IMG/VR virus record: IMGVR_UViG_2565956626_000019
Span: 1-23,118 of that record
Reading direction: 5' to 3' (one strand)
Source of the DNA: a virus
Lineage: Duplodnaviria; Heunggongvirae; Uroviricota; Caudoviricetes
DNA: 23,118 nucleotides
The position numbers and the translations under genes are program-made. The notes under the pieces are model-generated. The model worked only from the letters and a program-made list of their open reading frames with translations, had not been told where the DNA came from and ran no database searches. Positions 1,267 through 9,066 of the stretch are shown here, piece after piece (within the stretch, counting starts at the first letter, position 1; each line of letters begins with the position of its first letter).

Positions 1267-3444
1267 CTATCTAATCCTGAACATTACAATTGGAGCAGAG
1301 CCAGAAGATAAAGGGCCTGACCAATGGTATCTAATTCTGAAAGAAGACTCACTTGGAGTTCCGATAATTTCTATTGGACTTAAAGTTGCACCTTCTGCAG
1401 AACCAGCAGGTTGTCTAAACCCCAACACAGCAATCTGGTTTGGTGTTGGGGCATACAGAAAATTATGCTCAATATCAACCTCGTTAGATTCGCTACCTGT
1501 TGGGTTTGGCATATTCCACTCAATATAATCGTCAGTTGATTTCCCATTTATTGAGTTTCCAACTGTTGCCATAATCGTCCACGTACACGTCCTGTTAAGG
1601 GCTGCCATTCTATCACCTAAAAACCTATTATAACCATTTGCGCCTGAAGTGATTAATCTTATATTCTCTGATGCACATGTGCCAATGCTGTTAAATCCAG
1701 TGCAATCAGAAGAAAGCCCCTTCGCAGTTATATCTACGCTGTTCGCAAAACAAATTGTTGTTGAATTTACTGCATCGCGAATAAGAGCAGAACCCGAAAA
1801 CAAATTATCACACGAACCTCTTATATTATTACCACCGCCGGATAAGTAACATAAATTTCCTTTTATCCTCTTGGATGTAAAAGTAACATTGTTATTGTCA
1901 CCAGTAACAGAAAGAAGCGAGGCTTTAATAGGGGCATTGTCACTCTGCAACTGACCAATTTGGTTTATTGTAACTACATTGTTGTTGCCTGATATAGCTA
2001 TCTGATACCCATCATCATCAATTGAAGGTGAATATCTTTGTGCTTTTATATTGATGTTAAGTGTCCAGATTTTACCGTTATCCAGAAGCATGTCGCGGAG
2101 AGGAGAAATTGAATCGCCAGTGTAGTTATCTGGCATTCTTCCGCACGCCCTGGCTTCTGCGATGGCAACAACACCATGTGCCCCGTTGGTAAACCAGTAA
2201 CCACCTAAACTATTATCAACACACACGTGCCTCGCATTGAATCGGTTAACACCCAGCGTCTTAAATCCATAGCCATAATACACAGCATATACATGGATGT
2301 AATTTATATCGACATGTCCTGTATAAGGAGACTGATTATCAAGAACAATTCCATGACATGATTCTCCTGGATAAAGAAGGCTTTGTTGGCTTGTTGCTGT
2401 TAATCTTGCGCTGTAAGGAGGAAGTCCACACAGGCCAAAAACAATATAATCTAGGTTAATATCACCTGGCCCCCTGAACACAACCCCCTCTCTCCCTGAA
2501 ATTCTTCCCGTTATCCTCACTTCAGAGGCGTGTTCCTGATTATCATGAAATGATCCATACCCCTCTGAATAGAGAGCATGTTCTGCAACATTATTAATCT
2601 CAACGTCAATGTGGTACATGCTGCCGAATATTTTAATGGCAGTTCCATAGTCATTGTTAACAGTGTCGCAAGTTCTCCATGAGTTTGTATCTCTTTGCAA
2701 GTCAAGATAATTACCATCAATGGTCATATCTTTTATGCTAAATCCATATGGCGCATCAGACAGATTTTCCACAACGCCAAAGCCATGTGTTTTAAATACA
2801 TCTGTATTACTACCTTTTTTAACATACAGAAATGTTGCTCTCTTTCCAGAGCCTTTATGATGAACGCCTGTATAAAGAATGATAGGAGAATCTATTAAAT
2901 AAACACCTGGAGGGTAAAATATTTCCCCACCACCATTATTAAAAGCAGCTAATGCTGCGGCATTAATGGCATCAGAATCTGATGTCAATCCATCTGCTTT
3001 AGCTCCATAGTATTGAGGTGTTTTCCTGATTGCATCGTAAACCGTTGAAGCGCCGAAACCGATATATTTACTACCATCTGTACCGCCAATAAGTAATTTA
3101 AACTGATCCGGGTCGTACTTCAACACATTAGGAAAATTGAACTGCTGCGCCCCATATGCATCATAAACAGCCATAGAATGGCCTTGCACAGTTACGAACT
3201 TGGCAATCTGTCCGTTATATACCGGGTAACCAGCAGCGTTAATGATGATTGGTTGAGAAACAGGAACGTGAGAGCCGTCTTCGTTCTCCACATAAACCTG
3301 AATCTGGTTTTCTGGATTTACTGGGTCAGTGTCAATTTTACCGATATAAATTTTACCATTGGCAACTGCTTTAAAAGAACGCGCCATAGTGAAGAGTTGC
3401 GATGGCATGCTTACCACAACATTGGCATTTATTGAATCTGTCAT
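1267..3444 (-). CDS. Tailspike protein: P22-gp9-type N-terminal head-binding domain fused to a divergent beta-helix-like receptor-binding domain.
   Basis: 725 aa. N-terminus [44 protein letters not shown]...[13 protein letters not shown]...[10 protein letters not shown] closely matches my recollection of the P22 tailspike N-terminus. Remainder is Gly/Asn/Ser-rich repeat-like sequence. ATG at 3444 with GGAG 8 nt upstream; TAG stop at 1267-1269. Confidence 0.85.
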
Positions 3445-3576
3445 TTAATTTGCTCCAGATACAAGGAATCACCGCAGCATGGCTACGGTTGGAATTTGTT
3501 ACATACCTAAACGGTACGATTGTTGATTTGTACAGTGGGTTTTACGATGCCATTCCACCCATTTGGTGAGGCATTG

Positions 3577-3834
3577 ATGATGTACAGCAAATACGATGAG
3601 GCGCAGTTCCACTTGAGGCTTACACACGAGTTGCACGCTAAGATTAAGCAGCGTGCAAAAATGAATAACAGGTCTATCAATTCCGAAATTGTGGCTACGA
3701 TGGAAGAATCACTCTCCAAACCATCACCTGTAAGCGGGTATCGTGATGAAGAAGAGAGGCTGGCCTCATTAATCTCGGAACGAGTAAAAGAAGTTGCGGC
3801 TGATATCCTTAGAAAAGAAAAAACCCGCGATTAA
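3577..3834 (+). CDS. mnt: Mnt-like ribbon-helix-helix repressor (Arc/MetJ superfamily with C-terminal oligomerisation helix).
   Basis: Residues NNRSINSEIVATMEESLSKPSPVSGYRDEEERLASLI align with recalled P22 Mnt (NGRSMNSELLQIVQDALSKPSPVTGYRNDAERLA). ATG-ATG at 3577-3582 preceded by GGTGAGG 5 nt upstream. The track ORF from 3520 starts at a TTG and is probably an artefactual extension. Confidence 0.8.
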   Translation: MMYSKYDEAQFHLRLTHELHAKIKQRAKMNNRSINSEIVATMEESLSKPSPVSGYRDEEERLASLISERVKEVAADILRKEKTRD

Positions 3835-3850
3835 GCGGGTTTAGTTGGTT
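3811..3850. terminator. Bidirectional intrinsic terminator shared by convergent mnt (+) and the arc-bro-ant-orf73 operon (-).
   Basis: Stem AAACCCGC (3821-3828), loop GATTAA, stem GCGGGTTT (3835-3842). A-run at 3813-3823 gives UUUUUUCUUUU after the hairpin on the minus strand; T-rich TTTAGTTGGTT follows on the plus strand. Overlaps the mnt stop codon. Confidence 0.65.
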
Positions 3851-4070
3851 AGTTATCAAAAAGTCCGTACGTTTCTTCTTCTTCAGGTGTAAGGGGAAGA
3901 ATCTCTACTCTATCTATAGATACCTTTTCAATGTACCCATGAGGTCTACTTAAAATTAAAGCTCTCTCATGCCACAGAACTCCAAGAATGTGATACCTTC
4001 CAGCATCGCCTTTTACCCTGGCTCTTCCTTTGATTCTTGGAGGCATAATGCCATATTTTTTCTTTGCCAT
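3849..4070 (-). CDS. Hypothetical small basic protein with acidic C-terminal tail (73 aa), translationally coupled to the upstream Ant-like gene.
   Basis: ATG at 4070-4068 overlaps the upstream TAA in a TAATG arrangement. Sequence MAKKKYGIMPPRIKGRARVKGD...LTPEEEETYGLFDN. No family recognised. Confidence 0.5.
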   Translation of the reverse strand: MAKKKYGIMPPRIKGRARVKGDAGRYHILGVLWHERALILSRPHGYIEKVSIDRVEILPLTPEEEETYGLFDN

Positions 4071-4798
4071 TATGCAACATTACTCCCATGAATCAGGTGT
4101 TGTAGTGCTTTAACACCTTCCGCATTGTAGCGGAATGCTTCCACCTGTTTGCTGGAATGCGCAGATTTATCCAGGAAGAACTTCCCGTACTGCTCAGTTT
4201 TGAGGTTGTTTGCGTTAGCAATGCGACCAATCTTGTTGGCCGTTACTCCAAGCTGCTCTGCAACCTCCCCTGCTGAGTAGTAATGCTCTTCTATTGCCGG
4301 AAGAGGTATTGCATTAAAACCAACGAGCGGGTTGATTATACTTGCTGCCGCTGTCTGCTTTGCCTCAGGCGCAAGATTTGGCATCAGATCGAACAGATTG
4401 GTAACAGCTTCAACCGTCATTTTCAGTGTTCGCGCCTGGCGATACTCAACAAGTCCACTCGACGATTTACCGCTTTTAATGTGCGCTTCTTGCATACTTT
4501 CAAGTTGGTCTACAAGTGAGCGGCGAACAGCTTTAGATTCACGAGCAGCCACTCGAAGGGCTTGCTTAATTGACATAACAACTTTTTCAGAAGTTGTCTT
4601 GTTTGATTTTTGAACTACGAAAATTTCGTAGTGCTCACCTTCAAGTTCATCCTTAATGCGTGCAATAAAGTCGTTATTGCGAACTTCTTTTTCCCCGCAC
4701 TGTCTACGAGCATGATTGACCATCTCTAACAGGTACTGGCTATCAATGGTTTTATCCGTGACAACGGATCCGATGTTTGCTACATTCTTAAAAGTCAT
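4070..4798 (-). CDS. Antirepressor-like protein with C-terminal KilAC/ANT-type domain.
   Basis: 242 aa from ATG at 4798, with AAGGAA 6 nt upstream. C-terminal segment YYSAGEVAEQLGVTANKIGRIANANNLKTEQYGKFF resembles the antirepressor KilAC DNA-binding motif. The track ORF to 4885 begins at a TTG. Confidence 0.6.
   Translation of the reverse strand: MTFKNVANIGSVVTDKTIDSQYLLEMVNHARRQCGEKEVRNNDFIARIKDELEGEHYEIFVVQKSNKTTSEKVVMSIKQALRVAARESKAVRRSLVDQLESMQEAHIKSGKSSSGLVEYRQARTLKMTVEAVTNLFDLMPNLAPEAKQTAAASIINPLVGFNAIPLPAIEEHYYSAGEVAEQLGVTANKIGRIANANNLKTEQYGKFFLDKSAHSSKQVEAFRYNAEGVKALQHLIHGSNVA
4758..4786 (+). promoter_or_regulatory. Candidate sigma70 promoter on the plus strand, antisense to the ant-like gene start (P_sar-like).
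   Basis: -35 GTGACA at 4758-4763, 17-nt spacer, -10 TACATT at 4781-4786. Predicted start about 4793, reading across the ant-like start codon (4796-4798) and its Shine-Dalgarno (4805-4810). Confidence 0.4.
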
Positions 4799-4866
4799 TA
4801 GGCATTCCTTATGTGGTAGTAAGGGTGTGACATAGGCCGCCAGCAGCACACTGGCGGTTTTCTTTT
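4793..4866 (+). ncRNA. Candidate ~75-nt antisense RNA (sar-like) covering the ant-like ribosome-binding site, ending at a plus-strand intrinsic terminator.
   Basis: Plus-strand terminator: stem CCGCCAG (4837-4843), loop CAGCACA, stem CTGGCGG (4851-4857), then TTTTCTTTT (4858-4866). It lies inside a minus-strand operon and would not terminate minus-strand transcripts. Architecture mirrors P22 sar in the immI region. Confidence 0.45.
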
Positions 4867-4885
4867 GCGCCGTCCTGGGCACCAA

Positions 4886-5512
4886 TCAATGAATCCATTC
4901 CTCGCCGCGAAGTTTTGCCAGCATTGGCTGAGCGTTCTTTACGACAAAATTGTTGGGATCAAGATTCTTCATTTCACGAAGAAGCGATTTCTTGGTTTCT
5001 TCTGACATGTAGCGAGTCTCATATGCAATATCGTAAATCCTTCCTGAAAGCTCAGAACCAATTTGCTTCATTCCTGGGTAGATGTGTTTGCACATTTGTT
5101 GACTCTTCTCCATCCACAATTGTAAGTAGCAGAGATTAACCAGTTCTTCGTCAGTAAACTGTTTTGCAATCGGTGAGCATTCTGCCTGCCGATCCAAAAT
5201 ATCCAGCACCCAGCGGCGGAACTCTTTGGCTACCGGAGTGCGAGCAAACATCGCGATTAGGTGGGCACCGCGTAGTGAGAAAACTCGCACTTTTTTGCGA
5301 TAATTTCCTGAGGTACTCACTTCGAGTACCTGAGTCATTCCGGCGCTAAACTCATCGCTATACTTGTTATAAATCATTGTTACTGCACGGCTATTTGCAT
5401 ATTTAAGTGCAGATGCAATATTAGATGATGTAAACCAAACACCATGCATATCACGGGTGGGCACCAACTCAACTCCGTGGAAGTTGTAATCTGATTTTGC
5501 TACAATATTCAT
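4886..5512 (-). CDS. BRO-N/AntA-like antirepressor-family protein.
   Basis: 208 aa from ATG at 5512, with AAGGAAA 7 nt upstream. N-terminal region ...GVELVPTRDMHGVWFTSSNIASALKYANSRAV... and ...LIAMFARTPVAKEFRRWVLDIL match the BRO-N/KilA-N pattern. Alternative ATGs at 5542 and 5617 lack good SD. Confidence 0.65.
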   Translation of the reverse strand: MNIVAKSDYNFHGVELVPTRDMHGVWFTSSNIASALKYANSRAVTMIYNKYSDEFSAGMTQVLEVSTSGNYRKKVRVFSLRGAHLIAMFARTPVAKEFRRWVLDILDRQAECSPIAKQFTDEELVNLCYLQLWMEKSQQMCKHIYPGMKQIGSELSGRIYDIAYETRYMSEETKKSLLREMKNLDPNNFVVKNAQPMLAKLRGEEWIH

Positions 5513-5585
5513 GTTAGTTTCCTTGCATACGGTTACTGACATAGAGGCCCGGTTTGTGTTCGCGCACTGCCGGGCTTCACTATTT

Positions 5586-5759
5586 TTATTGGATGACAAC
5601 ATCGCCCTTTGCCTCAAGTTTCATCAATAACTCCATTCGATAAGCTATCTCTGCCTGAATTGACCTATGGCATCTTTTTGCTGATTCGCGGATATGTGAA
5701 TCAACCTTTTCTGTAAAACGAACCTGACGCGGCTTGATGGAAGATATCTTTTCAGTCAT
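5586..5759 (-). CDS. arc: Arc-like ribbon-helix-helix repressor, 57 aa (not in the supplied ORF track because it is under 60 aa).
   Basis: My translation: MTEKISSIKPRQVRFTEKVDSHIRESAKRCHRSIQAEIAYRMELLMKLEAKGDVVIQ. Aligns with recalled P22 Arc (..FNLRWPREVLDLVRKVAEENGRSVNSEIYQRVMESFKKEG). AGGAG 6 nt upstream of ATG (5759-5757); TAA at 5588-5586; first gene of the minus-strand operon. Confidence 0.6.
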   Translation of the reverse strand: MTEKISSIKPRQVRFTEKVDSHIRESAKRCHRSIQAEIAYRMELLMKLEAKGDVVIQ

Positions 5760-5858
5760 TATGCACTCCTGTTTTTGAAAAACTCATAATCTCACTTTTT
5801 GTAGTTTGATTATTCACTCACACTCAGTATGAGTCAATGAATTTTTTATGGTGAACTA
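5760..5858. promoter_or_regulatory. Divergent, overlapping promoter/operator region between the arc operon (-) and the CI-like operon (+).
   Basis: Minus-strand promoter: -35 TTGACT (5837-5832), 17-nt spacer, -10 AATAAT (5814-5809). Plus-strand candidate: -35 TTGATT (5806-5811), -10 TATGAG (5828-5833). Palindrome ACTCAgtaTGAGT (5822-5834) and tandem CACTCA repeats (5815-5826) overlap both promoters. Confidence 0.45.
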
Positions 5859-6500
5859 ATGAATTTTGACGATCAATTCCCATCAAGAGTATCTCTGGCA
5901 AGACAGTCCAGGGGTATGACGCAGGCGCAGTTGTCAAAATTAGCTGGTGTTGTTCAACGTCAAATAGCTGCATACGAGGGTGGTGAGGCTAAACCACGGC
6001 TTCGTGTATTGCAGGCATTAGCCAACGCATTAGGCACTACGGCTGAGTGGTTAGCTCTGGGTGAAGGTCAGGGGCCTGGAACAAAAAACGTCATGCCTGA
6101 CGTTCTGGTAAAGCAAATACCAATCCTCAAACTAGATGAAGTTATGCATTACCTAAACACAGGTGAACATTCATCGTCTAGATTTCATCCGGCAATATAC
6201 AATGTTGGTGACTCTGCATTTGCATTGACTATTGAAGGTGAAGCTATGACTACAAGTTCAGGTATTAGCTTTCCCAGAGGATCAGTTGTCACGTTCAGCC
6301 CTCTAGTAAAAGCTAAAAGCAAAGATTATGTAATAGCATCATTGGATAAAGAGCAAATATTGAGCTTCAAGCAGGTTTACATTGGTGAAATAGAGACAAA
6401 CTTAGTATCCCTAAACCCAATGTATCCTAATATTCTTGTTAGAAATGAAGATGTTAGTATTTTGGCAACCGCAGTTTACCTTGAAATCCCGTTGCTTTGA
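5859..6500 (+). CDS. Lambda CI-like repressor (XRE HTH plus S24/LexA-like C-terminal domain) that appears non-cleavable.
   Basis: 213 aa. HTH GMTQAQLSKLAGVVQRQIAAYEGG. C-domain DSAFALTIEGEAM...DYVIASL...SFKQV...LNPMYPNIL aligns with lambda CI DSAFWLEVEGNSM...DFCIARL...TFKKL...LNPQYPMIP. Ser149 equivalent is Ala; Lys192 equivalent retained; Ala-Gly scissile site position reads Asp-Glu. Confidence 0.8.
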   Translation: MNFDDQFPSRVSLARQSRGMTQAQLSKLAGVVQRQIAAYEGGEAKPRLRVLQALANALGTTAEWLALGEGQGPGTKNVMPDVLVKQIPILKLDEVMHYLNTGEHSSSRFHPAIYNVGDSAFALTIEGEAMTTSSGISFPRGSVVTFSPLVKAKSKDYVIASLDKEQILSFKQVYIGEIETNLVSLNPMYPNILVRNEDVSILATAVYLEIPLL

Positions 6501-6564
6501 TATCCTTTAGGAAGCGACACATTATCATCCGGTGTTCTGCTCAAAACTAAGGAGTGGCTACTCA

Positions 6565-7203
6565 ATGAAAAAAATAGATATATATAGCGATACATCAGCC
6601 TATGTCATAGGCTCATTGGGTTTTTTAATTTTTTTTGTTTGGCAGTACCAGTCACTATCTCCAGGATGGAGATTTTTGGGGATGTCTTTGATATCACTTG
6701 GTGCAGGAATAGCAACGCAGGTGTTGATGTATCTCTTTAATGGATGGATCTCAAAAAGAGTTGAGAAAAAAAGAGCTACTTCAATATGTAGAAGCCTAGC
6801 TATTCCAGAAGACTCTACAGATCAGGATGATATTGCAAAATGTTGGCGGTATATGATTGCAAGATACTCAAATGAGTTACTGGCAAACAGACTGTCCGAC
6901 TTAATCGGGATCGTAGTTACCTCTGTTGGAACAATCATCAGTATAGGGATATCAATTTGGTATGTCGGGATGATTGTCTATTTTGTTTGGAATAGAGACT
7001 TCAATGAACCTTCCCTTCTTTTTATACCTTTATTTTTCAGGGTATTAGCATTCATATGTGAGTTATTGCTCTCTTTTTTCTGCAATGTTTTGTTCAACAG
7101 ATACCCAGGTGAAGCAAGAAAGTTTAATAAAAACTATGATGAGTTAAGGAGAACAGATCCTTTTCTATCAAGCAAAGAGTTCCGCGATTCCATTCGCAAT
7201 TAA
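6565..7203 (+). CDS. Multi-pass inner-membrane protein (4-5 predicted TM helices), co-operonic with the CI-like gene; function unknown (exclusion/immunity candidate).
   Basis: 212 aa from ATG at 6565, with AAGGAG 10 nt upstream. Hydrophobic segments AYVIGSLGFLIFFVWQY, FLGMSLISLGAGIATQVLMYLF, LIGIVVTSVGTIISIGISIWYVGMIVYFVW, LLFIPLFFRVLAFICELLLSFFCNVLF. Visibly AT-rich. Track ORF start at 6532 is an extension. Confidence 0.6.
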   Translation: MKKIDIYSDTSAYVIGSLGFLIFFVWQYQSLSPGWRFLGMSLISLGAGIATQVLMYLFNGWISKRVEKKRATSICRSLAIPEDSTDQDDIAKCWRYMIARYSNELLANRLSDLIGIVVTSVGTIISIGISIWYVGMIVYFVWNRDFNEPSLLFIPLFFRVLAFICELLLSFFCNVLFNRYPGEARKFNKNYDELRRTDPFLSSKEFRDSIRN

Positions 7204-7224
7204 CAACATCCATGACATCAACCC

Positions 7225-9066
7225 TTAGCGATCAGTTGCATCATTGGCAAGTATTGGTCTGATGGCATTTGCGGCGTTATTCAGCGCTCTTTCATAGGCT
7301 GGCGTTCCAGCTTTAGTGTTTGCCAGACGTAAGAGCGCATTCCTTGCTGCTTTGGACTCATACAAGCGCATCATTGCACCGAAACCAGCCTCAAGCCCCA
7401 TTGATACGCCAAGAGTCGCAGTTGCGCCAATCGTCCTTATCCTGTTGGCTTGCGATTGCCCCGTCTGAGTTACTACATTTGCGGTGTCTGACCTTGCTGT
7501 TTGCTGTAGAACTTCATTAAGAGCATCAAGTTCTTTCATGTGCTTTCCAGAAAAAATAGTGTTGTAAATTTCACCTCCTGACTGAGATTTCAGCTTATTA
7601 ACTTCAGTGATGAACTTGGCTGGAGAGTCGCCGGCCTTTTCCGCTATTTTGCTGACGTAAGCTGCACGCATAGCATCTTTCCCTTTATCATCCAGTGCGC
7701 TCCAGATTCGTTTCACGTCAGATGGTTTTCTGCTTAATACAACGGTATTTATAAGTTCAGGACTGGCTTCACTGCTTGCCTTGTTGAGCTTGTTGGCAAT
7801 GTTTTTATTAAGCACCTTATTATAAACGTTTGCATAATCGGAATTTGCTTTAAGGTATTTTGCTGCGTCTGATGCACCGAGGTTTTTAGCAACTGCGTTA
7901 CGAAGGTCTTTTGACATTGCATTCTCTACCATATTGGTAGCTGCTTTTGCCTGGTTGGGGAAGACCATAGCATCTCCCTGAACATTAGATCTAAATGCTG
8001 TTCTGTGCTGACGCAAGAGATCAAACGTAACATCCAAATCAGTTGCAGGGTTTGCTAATTCTTCACGTAGGTTACGCAAGGATGTAAGCAGGCTTTGATT
8101 GGCAGACGTCCCAAGCCGTTCCTGTCTTGCGATCGCTGTATTCAGAGCATTCATGGTATTTGTGGTATCAACTGCGGCATTACCCATTTTATTGGTGACG
8201 TCATTGATAACAGCGCCAGCGGCATCCTTCCGCCCCCTTAACGTGGTGGTAAGAGATTTCACCACATCATCAGGGTTGTACTCACCAAAACGGTCAAAAT
8301 AATTGCTTACCAGTTTACTACGCGTTGCATATTGCTCCGCTCTCTTTGAGCCTGTCCCGAGCAAAGCCCCCTCGGCATCCTGAGTAAGGCCACGAGTGAA
8401 AGCATTTTTCGGCGGGATAACATCAGATGTCATTGGTGTCACGCCCATCGATTCTGATGTGGCAATTTTCTTCGCCACTTCTGGCGCAATATCACCTTTT
8501 ATAGCCGTTATTCCACGCCCTATTCCCTTTGCTGCTGCGGAAAGAACACCCTGAGCGGCAAGGTTAACTCCGGCATTTTTGGCTGCATTTTGTGCGAAAT
8601 CGCCTTTCTGATTTGCGGCCTCTGCCAGTGATCCAATAGCCATGCTTCCTGCCATTCCAACTCCTGGAACTAAATACCCGCCAATTGTTTCTCCAGCTTG
8701 CGCATAAGGGTCTGTTGGTCGATCTACTGGACGATAAACATCATCCAAAACCTTGGGGCCACCAAGACCCTGGCTGATTGCATTAATCAGACTTGCGCCA
8801 CCCTGCAATACGTCAAATGGTATGTTTACCAGACCACGGCCAGCCTGTTCTGCAATTTGCCCTGCACTTTGACCACCAGTGAGCCAATCGCCAGCTTGTT
8901 GCATCAATGATGGTTCTTCACGTGCTGGTTCATTATTGGCCTGATTAACTGTTTGTTGCTGAACAGCCTGACCAGCAAAATACTCATCAATGGCGGTGCC
9001 AATATCTTCCGTGCTCGTACCATCAGGAAAGGTAAATGTCTTACCGTTTGCAGTTACTTTCATCAT
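7225..9066 (-). CDS. Ejection (pilot/E) protein, P22 gp16-like.
   Basis: 613 aa; size and position match P22 gp16 (the last gene before the accessory region). ATG pair at 9066/9063 overlaps the upstream stop. Confidence 0.65.

Follow-up and report, generated by a model that had tools for sequence, protein, structure and literature searches.

A gene for a CI-like repressor that is followed on the same strand by a gene for an AT-rich membrane protein raises the question of whether the two act together as a phage defence operon. Such a pair was found in a 23,118-nucleotide stretch of viral DNA (Caudoviricetes; positions 1 to 23,118 of IMG/VR record IMGVR_UViG_2565956626_000019), referred to hereafter as the window. 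An initial annotation, made from the sequence alone, had likened the pair to lambda cI-rexB and to P22 sieA, and had put it forward as the best candidate for an uncharacterized exclusion, abortive-infection or immunity function. The two plus-strand open reading frames, ORF1 (5859-6500) and ORF2 (6565-7203), were confirmed. They lie between a gene-16 homologue and an immI-like region, in exactly the position and orientation of P22 sieA, which is likewise located between genes 16 and 9 and convergent with gene 16; the annotation was right on this point also. The evidence presented below makes it very probable that the pair represents two adjacent, independently inherited 'ant moron' cassettes of P22-like phages, one carrying sieA type B and the other ORF1 and the control of ant, rather than one defence operon.

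ORF2 fits its description as an AT-rich, multi-pass membrane protein. The G+C content of the gene is 36.3%, as compared with 47.0% for the window and 46.8% for the adjacent gene-16 homologue. Hydropathy and an AlphaFold2 model (mean pLDDT 75) predicted four helices, at residues 6-25, 33-78, 105-143 and 149-177, together with a charged loop (approximately residues 59-109) and, at the C-terminus, a basic tail. No specific family had been recognized for this protein, but it matched the SieA-like PHROG 7745 (E=6.5e-21) and P22 SieA itself, with 28% identity over 148 aa by BLASTP (E=8e-25) and with E=1e-11 when P22 sieA was compared by tblastn. It also contains the SieA motif FxRYPxEAxxFNK, as FNRYPGEARKFNK at residues 177-189. 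The fixed residues of the motif were constant in 11 type B homologues except at the third position after EA, where F is replaced by I in one homologue (P0004) and by M in another (P0010). The ATG start that gives the 212-aa product is preceded by a Shine-Dalgarno sequence, AAGGAG (6549-6554). An alternative, annotated GTG start at 6532 gives a protein of 223 aa, and every residue of this version matched ABV04710.1 (EcHS_A0321) of Escherichia coli HS. The DNA from 5700 to 7300 is 100% identical to that of E. coli HS, with the same neighbours on both sides, and the gene itself shows no difference from that of HS1 SieA. Judged by its sequence, then, ORF2 is a member of the SieA family, identical to a type B protein that has been published and tested, and is already known. 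A Foldseek search of the AlphaFold2 model against PDB and BFVD returned nothing at E<=0.001, so that nothing points to a transporter or to another known fold. All ORF2 homologues belong to a precomputed family, PF26849, to which ORF2 gave no match in the local Pfam scan.

Table 1. Coordinates of features at and around the ORF1-ORF2 locus (positions in the window).
Feature	Position	Strand	Evidence or remarks
Tailspike (gene-9 homologue)	1267-3444	-	
Mnt homologue, 95 aa, Arc/Mnt family, beside tailspike gene	3547-3834		46% identical to P22 Mnt
Second antirepressor-family gene	4070-4798	-	PHROG 1726 anti-repressor, E=2e-100; KilA-like in JEP4
Antirepressor Ant, 208 aa from ATG 5512	4886-5512	-	Pfam Bro-N + P22_AR_C; PHROG 245 Ant, E=5e-66
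sar-like antisense RNA (candidate)	5511-5590	+	A first hairpin, then a GC-rich one with a U-run after it
Putative ribbon-helix-helix (Arc-like) protein, 57 aa, first gene of antirepressor operon	5586-5759	-	PHROG 10182, E=2e-37
Divergent control region, Arc-like gene/ORF1	5760-5858	.	Promoter-like site, palindrome, motif pair
ORF1, second CI-like repressor (HTH_3 + S24-fold C-terminal domain), at P22 mnt position	5859-6500	+	Pfam, alignment, neighbourhood
Promoter-like site, TTGATA/17-bp spacer/CATTAT	6497-6525	+	Consensus scan, 9/12 matches
Conserved leader/junction, 36 bp, ACATTATCATCCGGTGTTCTGCTCAAAACTAAGGAG	6519-6554	+	Homology breakpoints at both ends
ORF2, sieA type B (HS1-type), inner-membrane superinfection-exclusion protein, 212 aa	6565-7203	+	Identity, PHROG, motif
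Gene-16 homologue (ejection/DNA-transfer protein), proposed SieA target with gp20	7225-9066	-	PHROG 770, E=3e-279; P22 layout

Leavitt et al. (2024, mBio 15:e02169-23, PMC10883804) cloned EcHS_A0321 under the name 'HS1 SieA, type B'; they defined SieA types A, B and C and placed the motif in the cytoplasm, near the C-terminus. In Salmonella galK, HS1 sieA fully excluded phages P22, L, MG40, MG178 and LP7, and HS1 SieA was indistinguishable in its behaviour from P22 SieA. The clone had the sense orientation within the gal operon, and 106 bp of upstream DNA sufficed (PMC10883804). These measurements were made in Salmonella against P22-type phages and not in the window's own host. P22 SieA, of type A, shares with ORF2 the motif and three C-terminal transmembrane helices, and has the same published exclusion spectrum. 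ORF2 differs from it by an N-terminal extension of ∼44 residues that provides a fourth transmembrane helix, in agreement with the description of type B as the three helices of P22 SieA plus one N-terminal helix (PMC10883804). The suspicion of superinfection exclusion was thus well founded. The function is nevertheless not an uncharacterized one: identity with EcHS_A0321 makes ORF2 a known and characterized protein, and what had seemed the best candidate for a new exclusion function is SieA type B, tested in 2024. A false lead is thereby removed.

ORF1 encodes a protein of 213 aa with HTH_3 (Pfam, E=9e-13) and Peptidase_S24 (E=1e-12) domains, in keeping with its annotation as a CI-like repressor, and it aligns to structures of the lambda CI C-terminal domain. 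It shares with lambda CI, P22 C2 and LexA the N-terminal HTH and the C-terminal S24 fold, and it retains the catalytic lysine. It differs from them in that Ala129 (G-E-A129-M) aligns with the catalytic Ser149 of lambda CI (G-N-S149-M), in that neither of the cleavage dipeptides, Ala-Gly or Cys-Gly, is present in the linker (residues 70-115), and in that it is not the primary repressor. Most relatives of ORF1, including one that is 81% identical, have GDSM at the position of the serine.

The region to the left of ORF1 has the same gene order and orientation as P22 immI (mnt - Omnt/Oarc - arc - sar - ant). The shared plan comprises a small first gene, which in the window encodes a putative ribbon-helix-helix protein, an antisense RNA of two hairpins (a candidate in the window) over the ant ribosome-binding site, an antirepressor, and a divergent maintenance-repressor slot succeeded by sieA. 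The window differs from P22 immI in that the Mnt slot is occupied by a 213-aa HTH + S24-fold protein and not by an 83-aa ribbon-helix-helix protein. Its Arc-like candidate has also diverged strongly, and it has a second antirepressor-family gene and, at another site, a gene for a Mnt homologue (Table 1). The 57-aa protein agrees with Arc in size and in position; its ribbon-helix-helix signals were weak (ParD_like, E=8e-4; Arc-like PHROG, E=0.0045), as were those obtained with a profile of 10 of its homologues (AmrZ, E=0.0019; Arc, E=0.03-0.2). The sar-like candidate is antisense to the ribosome-binding site and start codon of ant (ATG 5512, minus strand), and its predicted folding is stable (MFE -35.8 kcal/mol, z=-5.24). 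The same layout was present in P22 sar and in 10 other loci, an identical terminator hairpin was found in locus L008, and compensatory changes affected 7 of 11 pairs of the terminator stem. The candidate is surrounded by a conserved island of 119 bp (5474-5592). An Rfam scan of the window found no family at gathering score. Its only match, a sub-threshold symR-like one (E=0.72), corresponds to the sar-like hairpins, which were not taken for a relative of SymR. In the HS1-type 'ant moron', Villafane et al. (2008) saw no obvious arc gene, so that control must differ from that in P22. The comparison made here offers an explanation: the region appears to have a sar homologue and a divergent gene of the Arc type, and a CI-like protein takes the place of Mnt.

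The control region between the 57-aa gene and ORF1 contains a minus-strand promoter-like site (TTGACT 5837-5832/AATAAT 5814-5809) and a motif pair, ACTCAT ... ATGAGTCAA. The second motif, ATGAGTCAA, was constant in five aligned control regions whose repressors are 44-81% identical to ORF1, and was found again in the majority of the 15 such regions compared. Putative ORF1 operators may be assigned to this region. The sequence ACTCAGTATGAGT (5822-5834) is a palindrome and overlaps the -35 hexamer of the promoter-like site on the ant side. Its designation as the ORF1 operator would be a guess, since it was not kept as a palindrome in distant modules.

ORF1 is most likely part of a separate, neighbouring antirepressor-control module. 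We infer that it serves a variant of immI as a maintenance repressor that cannot be cleaved: it would keep the divergent arc-like/sar/ant operon shut in the lysogen, as a functional replacement for Mnt that RecA-stimulated self-cleavage could not remove. The chances seem to us evenly divided that the cassette to which it belongs is an undescribed, portable variant of immI, in which Mnt has been replaced by a CI-like HTH + S24-fold repressor of arc-like/sar/ant that has lost the catalytic serine in this lineage. If this is true, a second CI-like repressor that cannot be cleaved, rather than Mnt or host LexA, would control when the antirepressor is released and hence when the prophage is induced. 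[quoted passage not shown]

The Mnt homologue encoded beside the tailspike gene could itself be the repressor of ant, given its resemblance to P22 Mnt and the putative nature of the ORF1 operators. ORF1 would then act elsewhere, perhaps on no more than sieA and the ORF1 promoter, or on the immunity operators of a heterologous phage, as a decoy or for cross-immunity. This is unlikely in view of the company that ORF1 keeps. ORF1, the 57-aa gene and the control region were co-inherited as one cassette. Among 17 loci encoding ORF1 relatives (37-81% identity), an antirepressor gene lay directly upstream on the opposite strand in 16 and the 57-aa gene was present in 13, and the antirepressor operon was kept in backbones in which tblastn detected no Mnt homologue (e.g. 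L005-L008, L017, L018 and L023). An alternative cassette has an Arc/Mnt-family gene in the slot of ORF1. Finally, the P22-type mnt operator, AGGTCCACCGTGGACCT, was sought in the window with up to three mismatches and was not found. These observations favour ORF1 as the maintenance repressor of the antirepressor operon.

The boundaries of conserved sequence divide the locus into two. Homology breakpoints were located at 5592/5593, 6518/6519, 6554/6555 and 7234/7235, and they delimit cassette A (5593-6518), which comprises ORF1, the divergent control region and the 57-aa gene, and cassette B (6555-7234), which comprises sieA type B. The leader of 36 bp between them, compared by alignment of five loci, carries the Shine-Dalgarno sequence at its 3' end and is common to prophages with different flanking genes. 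In the 5,426 complete genomes of E. coli searched, ORF1 and sieA type B occurred together in four records, three of which were strain HS; ORF1 was found without sieA type B in 24 records and sieA type B without ORF1 in 17. The 36-bp leader alone was matched in nine of these genomes. In a phage collection searched by megablast, JEP4 was the sole match, and it matched the ORF1 half only. In 16 IMG/VR loci, the gene 5' of sieA type B belonged to the ORF1 cassette in five, was a 51-aa Arc-family gene in six and a P22-type mnt in three, so that at least three different kinds of regulator precede sieA type B.

This pattern bears on the proposal that the two genes are a dedicated defence operon on the model of lambda cI-rexAB, in which the repressor would serve the membrane effector as regulator, as sensor or as a required partner. 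The genes point the same way with 64 bp between them, and a search of the gap revealed no terminator and no significant or stable RNA structure; a shared transcript is therefore probable here. There is indeed a likeness to lambda cI-rexA-rexB, in that an exclusion gene lies 3' of a lysogeny-maintenance repressor with which it is probably co-transcribed. However, the linkage is facultative, the two genes assorting independently; three other kinds of gene also precede sieA type B; and sieA was downstream of none of the 17 ORF1 relatives, whose conserved partner is the divergent Arc-like/antirepressor operon. The 106 bp upstream of sieA in the HS1 clone do not include the start and promoter of ORF1, and since this clone excludes phages, ORF1 is not needed. 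ORF2, moreover, showed no homology to RexB or to any other entry in scans of Pfam-A and PADLOC, and the repressor of the pair, in contrast to lambda CI, is not the primary one. The dedicated two-gene operon is thus largely refuted, and we regard it as very improbable. Because ORF1 and sieA most likely belong to separate modules and sieA has already been tested, the pair is an ordinary one and not a new defence system.

The term operon itself held only in part. The lack of a terminator or structure in the 64-bp gap makes read-through from ORF1 into sieA plausible, but the gap also contains a promoter-like site and the two cassettes are inherited separately. P22 has a terminator, orf59a and an annotated promoter for sieA between mnt and sieA, whereas here there is only the gap with its 36-bp leader. 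The -35 of the predicted sieA promoter overlaps the ORF1 stop codon and its -10 is within the conserved leader, and the whole site falls inside the 106 bp cloned with HS1 sieA. Its function is uncertain, since the alternative upstream cassette lacks the -35 and since HS1 sieA was cloned in sense within gal. Transcription of sieA is probably provided by read-through from ORF1 together with a weak promoter in the gap. Its location 3' of a lysogeny-maintenance repressor would ensure expression in the prophage state.

SieA type B made by the prophage would be expected to act at the cytoplasmic membrane, where it would stop superinfecting P22-like phages from delivering their DNA; interference with the conduit formed by the ejection proteins gp20 and gp16 is the most likely means. 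For the SieA family, the DNA of the superinfecting phage fails to enter the cell, P22 SieA was shown to be at the inner membrane, and escape mutations affect the ejection proteins gp16 and gp20 (PMC10883804). ORF2 is a small multi-pass membrane protein without a solved relative, and might in principle act by abortive infection or membrane depolarization, in the manner of RexB or an ion channel. We consider this extremely improbable in the face of the published failure of DNA entry, the inner-membrane location, the escape mutations and the equivalence of HS1 SieA to P22 SieA; a DNA-entry block, and not abortive infection, also sets sieA type B apart from the rex genes.

That ORF1 might be the primary immunity repressor and the pair a true immunity region, as its CI-like architecture could suggest, is refuted for HS1 and JEP4 and has almost no probability in general, since the HS1 prophage and phage JEP4 carry an identical ORF1 plus a separate, canonical c2-cro-c1 region (in each the repressor, such as HS1 C2, has the serine-bearing GDSM and is only 26% identical to ORF1), and the place of ORF1, flanked by genes 16 and 9 and facing the antirepressor operon, is in the late region. 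The JEP4 copy of ORF1 is annotated as 'repressor protein C2'. With respect to the E. coli HS prophage, the window is a different mosaic, having an intact KilA-like gene, a longer tailspike and a full integrase. Among complete E. coli genomes, coverage of the window nowhere exceeded 83%.

The position of sieA, preceded by a conserved leader, is itself a site for cassettes, and the slot was found to hold other small envelope proteins also, which makes these candidates for exclusion screens. If the portable-module reading of the locus is true, the slot would be a site at which small membrane or secreted cargo proteins are swapped. The alternative cargo there belongs to PHROGs 2651, 5962 and 21338, all of unknown function; given such a swap site, these proteins could be exclusion factors.

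The two plus-strand ORFs of the initial annotation, a repressor gene (ORF1) and a membrane-protein gene (ORF2), were both present, and the window has the gene content of a P22-like (Lederbergvirus) prophage. In order, it carries integrase and tailspike genes, an Mnt-like gene, a pair of antirepressor-family genes, a 57-aa gene, ORF1 and ORF2; homologues of the ejection genes (16, 20 and 7) and then head genes follow. The window is distinct from E. coli strain HS (NC_009800.1): 5700-7300 is identical, but the mosaic differs in the tailspike, the integrase and parts of the ejection-protein genes, and no complete E. coli genome covers more than 83% of the window. As had been noted, the membrane-protein gene was AT-rich relative to the flanking virion genes (36.3% G+C as compared with 46.8% for the adjacent gene 16 homologue and 47.0% for the window). 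Its ATG lies 10 nt past a Shine-Dalgarno sequence (AAGGAG, 6549-6554). Hydropathy and an AlphaFold2 model (mean pLDDT 75) bore out the description of a multi-pass protein with a charged loop, giving four membrane-length helices (6-25, 33-58 reaching 78, 105-143 and 149-177) along with a basic C-terminal tail.

Features of the window and of comparison loci (L001, L011, L012), with coordinates in the respective sequence.
Feature	Coordinates	Strand	Description
Second Arc/Mnt-family gene	3547-3834	+	95 aa, 46% identical to P22 Mnt
sar-like antisense RNA candidate	5511-5590	+	two hairpins; covers ant ribosome-binding site and start codon
Cassette A	5593-6518		57-aa gene, control region, ORF1
Promoter-like site	TTGACT 5837-5832, AATAAT 5814-5809	-	in 5760-5858
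Palindrome	within 5760-5858		ACTCAGTATGAGT; overlaps minus-strand promoter-like site
Conserved pair	within 5760-5858		ACTCAT ... ATGAGTCAA
ORF1	5859-6500	+	213 aa; HTH_3 E=9e-13, Peptidase_S24 E=1e-12
Promoter-like site, ORF1-sieA gap	TTGATA 6497, CATTAT 6525	+	17-bp spacer
Leader	6519-6554		36 bp, ACATTATCATCCGGTGTTCTGCTCAAAACTAAGGAG; joins cassettes A and B; 3' end is Shine-Dalgarno AAGGAG
Cassette B	6555-7234		sieA
ORF2 (sieA type B)	6565-7203	+	212 aa from ATG; 223 aa from alternative GTG at 6532
sieA-slot cargo, AR_0058	L011 3564-3932		WP_001334102.1
sieA-slot cargo, EM10-18-28	L012 3862-4191		WP_000895335.1
sieA-slot cargo, phage JEP4	L001 6862-7050		unannotated 62-aa ORF

ORF2 had no match in the local Pfam and PADLOC libraries. 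It was matched by PHROG 7745 ('superinfection exclusion SieA-like', E=6.5e-21), and by tblastn it aligned with sieA in P22 and in 37 records from related Salmonella phages (27.7% identity, residues 44-202, E=1e-11). Pairwise BLASTP against P22 SieA, a comparison proposed at the outset, confirmed homology (28% identity over 148 residues, E=8e-25), so that a protein for which no family had been recognized belongs to the SieA family. The motif FxRYPxEAxxFNK, common to P22 SieA and the SieA of HS1, the P22-like prophage of E. coli HS (PMC10883804), reads FNRYPGEARKFNK in the window protein. The P22 gene order is 9(-) ant(-) arc(-) (operators) mnt(+) orf59a(+) sieA(+) 16(-); its sieA has the same position and orientation as ORF2, both being convergent with gene 16. 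Foldseek searches of PDB and BFVD with the ORF2 model gave nothing significant, and therefore nothing suggests a transporter.

The DNA at 5700-7300 was 100% identical to that of E. coli HS, and the GTG-start translation of ORF2 is identical to ABV04710.1, 'hypothetical protein EcHS_A0321 [Escherichia coli HS]'. This gene is the type B SieA (sieA-B) of HS1 in Leavitt et al. 2024 (PMC10883804). HS1 SieA is there reported to be 24% identical to P22 SieA, with an N-terminal extension of ~30 residues holding an extra transmembrane segment. Cloned in Salmonella galK with 106 bp of upstream DNA, HS1 sieA fully excluded P22, L, MG40, MG178 and LP7; HS1 SieA and P22 SieA acted alike on ejection-protein hybrid phages, and mutations escaping SieA mapped to the C-terminal parts of gp16 and gp20 (PMC10883804). 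The prediction of an exclusion function at the sieA position was right, given the SieA homology, the P22 layout and these tests. Contrary to what had been supposed, the gene is not novel, since the identical EcHS_A0321 was cloned and tested; the membrane protein is thus a known one that already has a family assignment and a tested function. The less-explored parts of the region are ORF1 as an Mnt replacement, a conserved sar homologue and a 36-bp leader with swappable cargo, which are probably variations on the well-studied theme of immI, the P22 secondary immunity region.

A megablast search with 5700-7300 as query matched 54 records among 5,426 complete E. coli genomes. Both ORF1 and sieA-B were found in four (three strain HS assemblies and EC17CM7), the ORF1 half only (5700-6554) in 24, the sieA half only (about 6519-7300) in 17, and the 36 bp at 6519-6554 alone in nine. 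Phage JEP4 carries ORF1 without sieA-B. Blastn against representative loci placed homology breakpoints at 5592/5593, 6518/6519, 6554/6555 and 7234/7235. Other prophages have, in place of cassette A, different 57-aa and 51-aa Arc-family genes (Pfam Arc E=8e-12, 6e-18) and, in place of cassette B, genes for unrelated small proteins (122, 109 or 62 aa) that are hydrophobic or have a signal peptide. Among 16 IMG/VR contigs, the upstream neighbour of sieA-B was the ORF1 cassette in five, an Arc-family cassette in six and P22-type mnt/arc/ant in three, the other two contigs being left unassigned. The comparative evidence indicates that ORF1 and sieA are two separate units, which assort apart, and not the single repressor-plus-membrane-protein unit first proposed.

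The leader is kept across prophages differing in both upstream and downstream genes, with copies at L011 3501-3536, L013 3001-3036 and L003 5001-5036. It looks like a mosaic junction or a common 5' leader for any cargo gene in the sieA slot. The alternative cargo proteins, which fall in PHROGs 2651, 5962 and 21338, all function-unknown families, are further candidates for envelope or exclusion factors expressed by prophages. There was no terminator-like feature between ORF1 and sieA, so transcription from the ORF1 promoter probably reads through into sieA. The promoter-like site in the gap is included in the 106 bp of the Leavitt et al. clone (PMC10883804). An independent promoter predicted there is only plausible, because its -35 is absent from the alternative upstream cassette and the published construct had sieA in sense orientation in the gal operon (PMC10883804).

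Relatives of ORF1 (17 loci, 37-81% identity) occur in Salmonella, Yersinia, Klebsiella, Leclercia, Providencia, Morganella, Tatumella, Lonsdalea and Xenorhabdus. At 16 of the 17 loci, the gene directly upstream on the opposite strand is of an antirepressor family (Bro-N, P22_AR_N/C or pRha); a recognizable 57-aa gene homologue is present at 13, and sieA lies downstream at none of the 17. What stays with ORF1 across loci is thus the divergent operon of the small gene and the antirepressor. The backbones vary: L010 is a P22-like prophage, L005-L007 adjoin an integrase gene, and in L008 (Logan ERR885451 contig, 4134-5681) the ORF1/57-aa/antirepressor module sits between the tape-measure and minor-tail genes of a lambda-like siphovirus tail-gene cluster, with a repressor 81% identical to ORF1 that retains the catalytic Ser. 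The module thus travels between virion-gene backbones that are unrelated.

HS1 and JEP4, whose ORF1 is identical, each have a separate c2-cro-c1 region, which rules out ORF1 as primary repressor there; their C2 repressor carries the catalytic motif GDSM and shares 26% identity with ORF1. In an alignment with the lambda CI C-terminal domain, catalytic Ser149 corresponds to Ala129 of ORF1 (GnSM vs GeAM) and the Lys is kept; the ORF1 linker has no Ala-Gly site. Ala at this S24 position (codon 129) is shared by the closest relatives (GEAM or GDAM), and most relatives, one of them 81% identical, have GDSM. Loss of the catalytic Ser appears limited to the closest relatives of ORF1. The slot filled by ORF1 in the window is filled by mnt in P22. 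From these sequence comparisons, we infer that ORF1 takes over the function of Mnt, acting as a non-cleavable maintenance repressor at the ant promoter. That the candidate elements at 5760-5858 are its operators is a guess.

Judged by its sequence, the antirepressor operon has features of P22 immI: the sar-like candidate and the antirepressor are the counterparts of sar over the ant start and of ant, and the 57-aa gene is a possible counterpart of the small ribbon-helix-helix gene. Ribbon-helix-helix signals in the 57-aa protein were weak but consistent (ParD_like E=8e-4, Arc-like PHROG E=0.0045; weak profile matches to AmrZ, E=0.0019, and Arc, E=0.03-0.2), and its RS-x-Q-x-E-I motif aligned with RSVNSEI of Arc. 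The start codon of ant is the ATG at 5512. The sar-like candidate (MFE -35.8 kcal/mol, z=-5.24) has a possible -10, TACAAT (5501-5506), and a GC-rich second hairpin followed by a U-run, forming a terminator; it matched no Rfam family. The same layout was found in the same place in P22, where sar RNA is annotated, and in ten other loci. The terminator hairpin of L008 is exactly that of P22, and the aligned terminator stem showed compensatory changes in 7 of 11 pairs. The sar-like candidate lies in a 119-bp island (5474-5592) that kept 95% identity between cassettes with different flanks. This region was named the 'ant moron' by Villafane et al. 2008 (PMC2629481), who remarked that in the HS-1 type arc is seemingly absent and ant control must differ; the present comparison fits that remark and refines it.

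The second Arc/Mnt-family gene is flanked by the tailspike gene on one side and the antirepressor operon's end on the other, its stop codon spanned by a perfect 8-bp inverted repeat (AAACCCGC/GCGGGTTT, hairpin 3821-3842). No P22-type mnt operator was found within the window. The tandem antirepressor-family genes (4070-5512, minus strand) comprise a Bro-N/P22_AR_C gene and then a KilA-like gene (PHROG 1726), after which comes a conserved 73-aa gene (3849-4070). The KilA-like gene is intact in the window, and an IS3 element interrupts the copy in E. coli HS.
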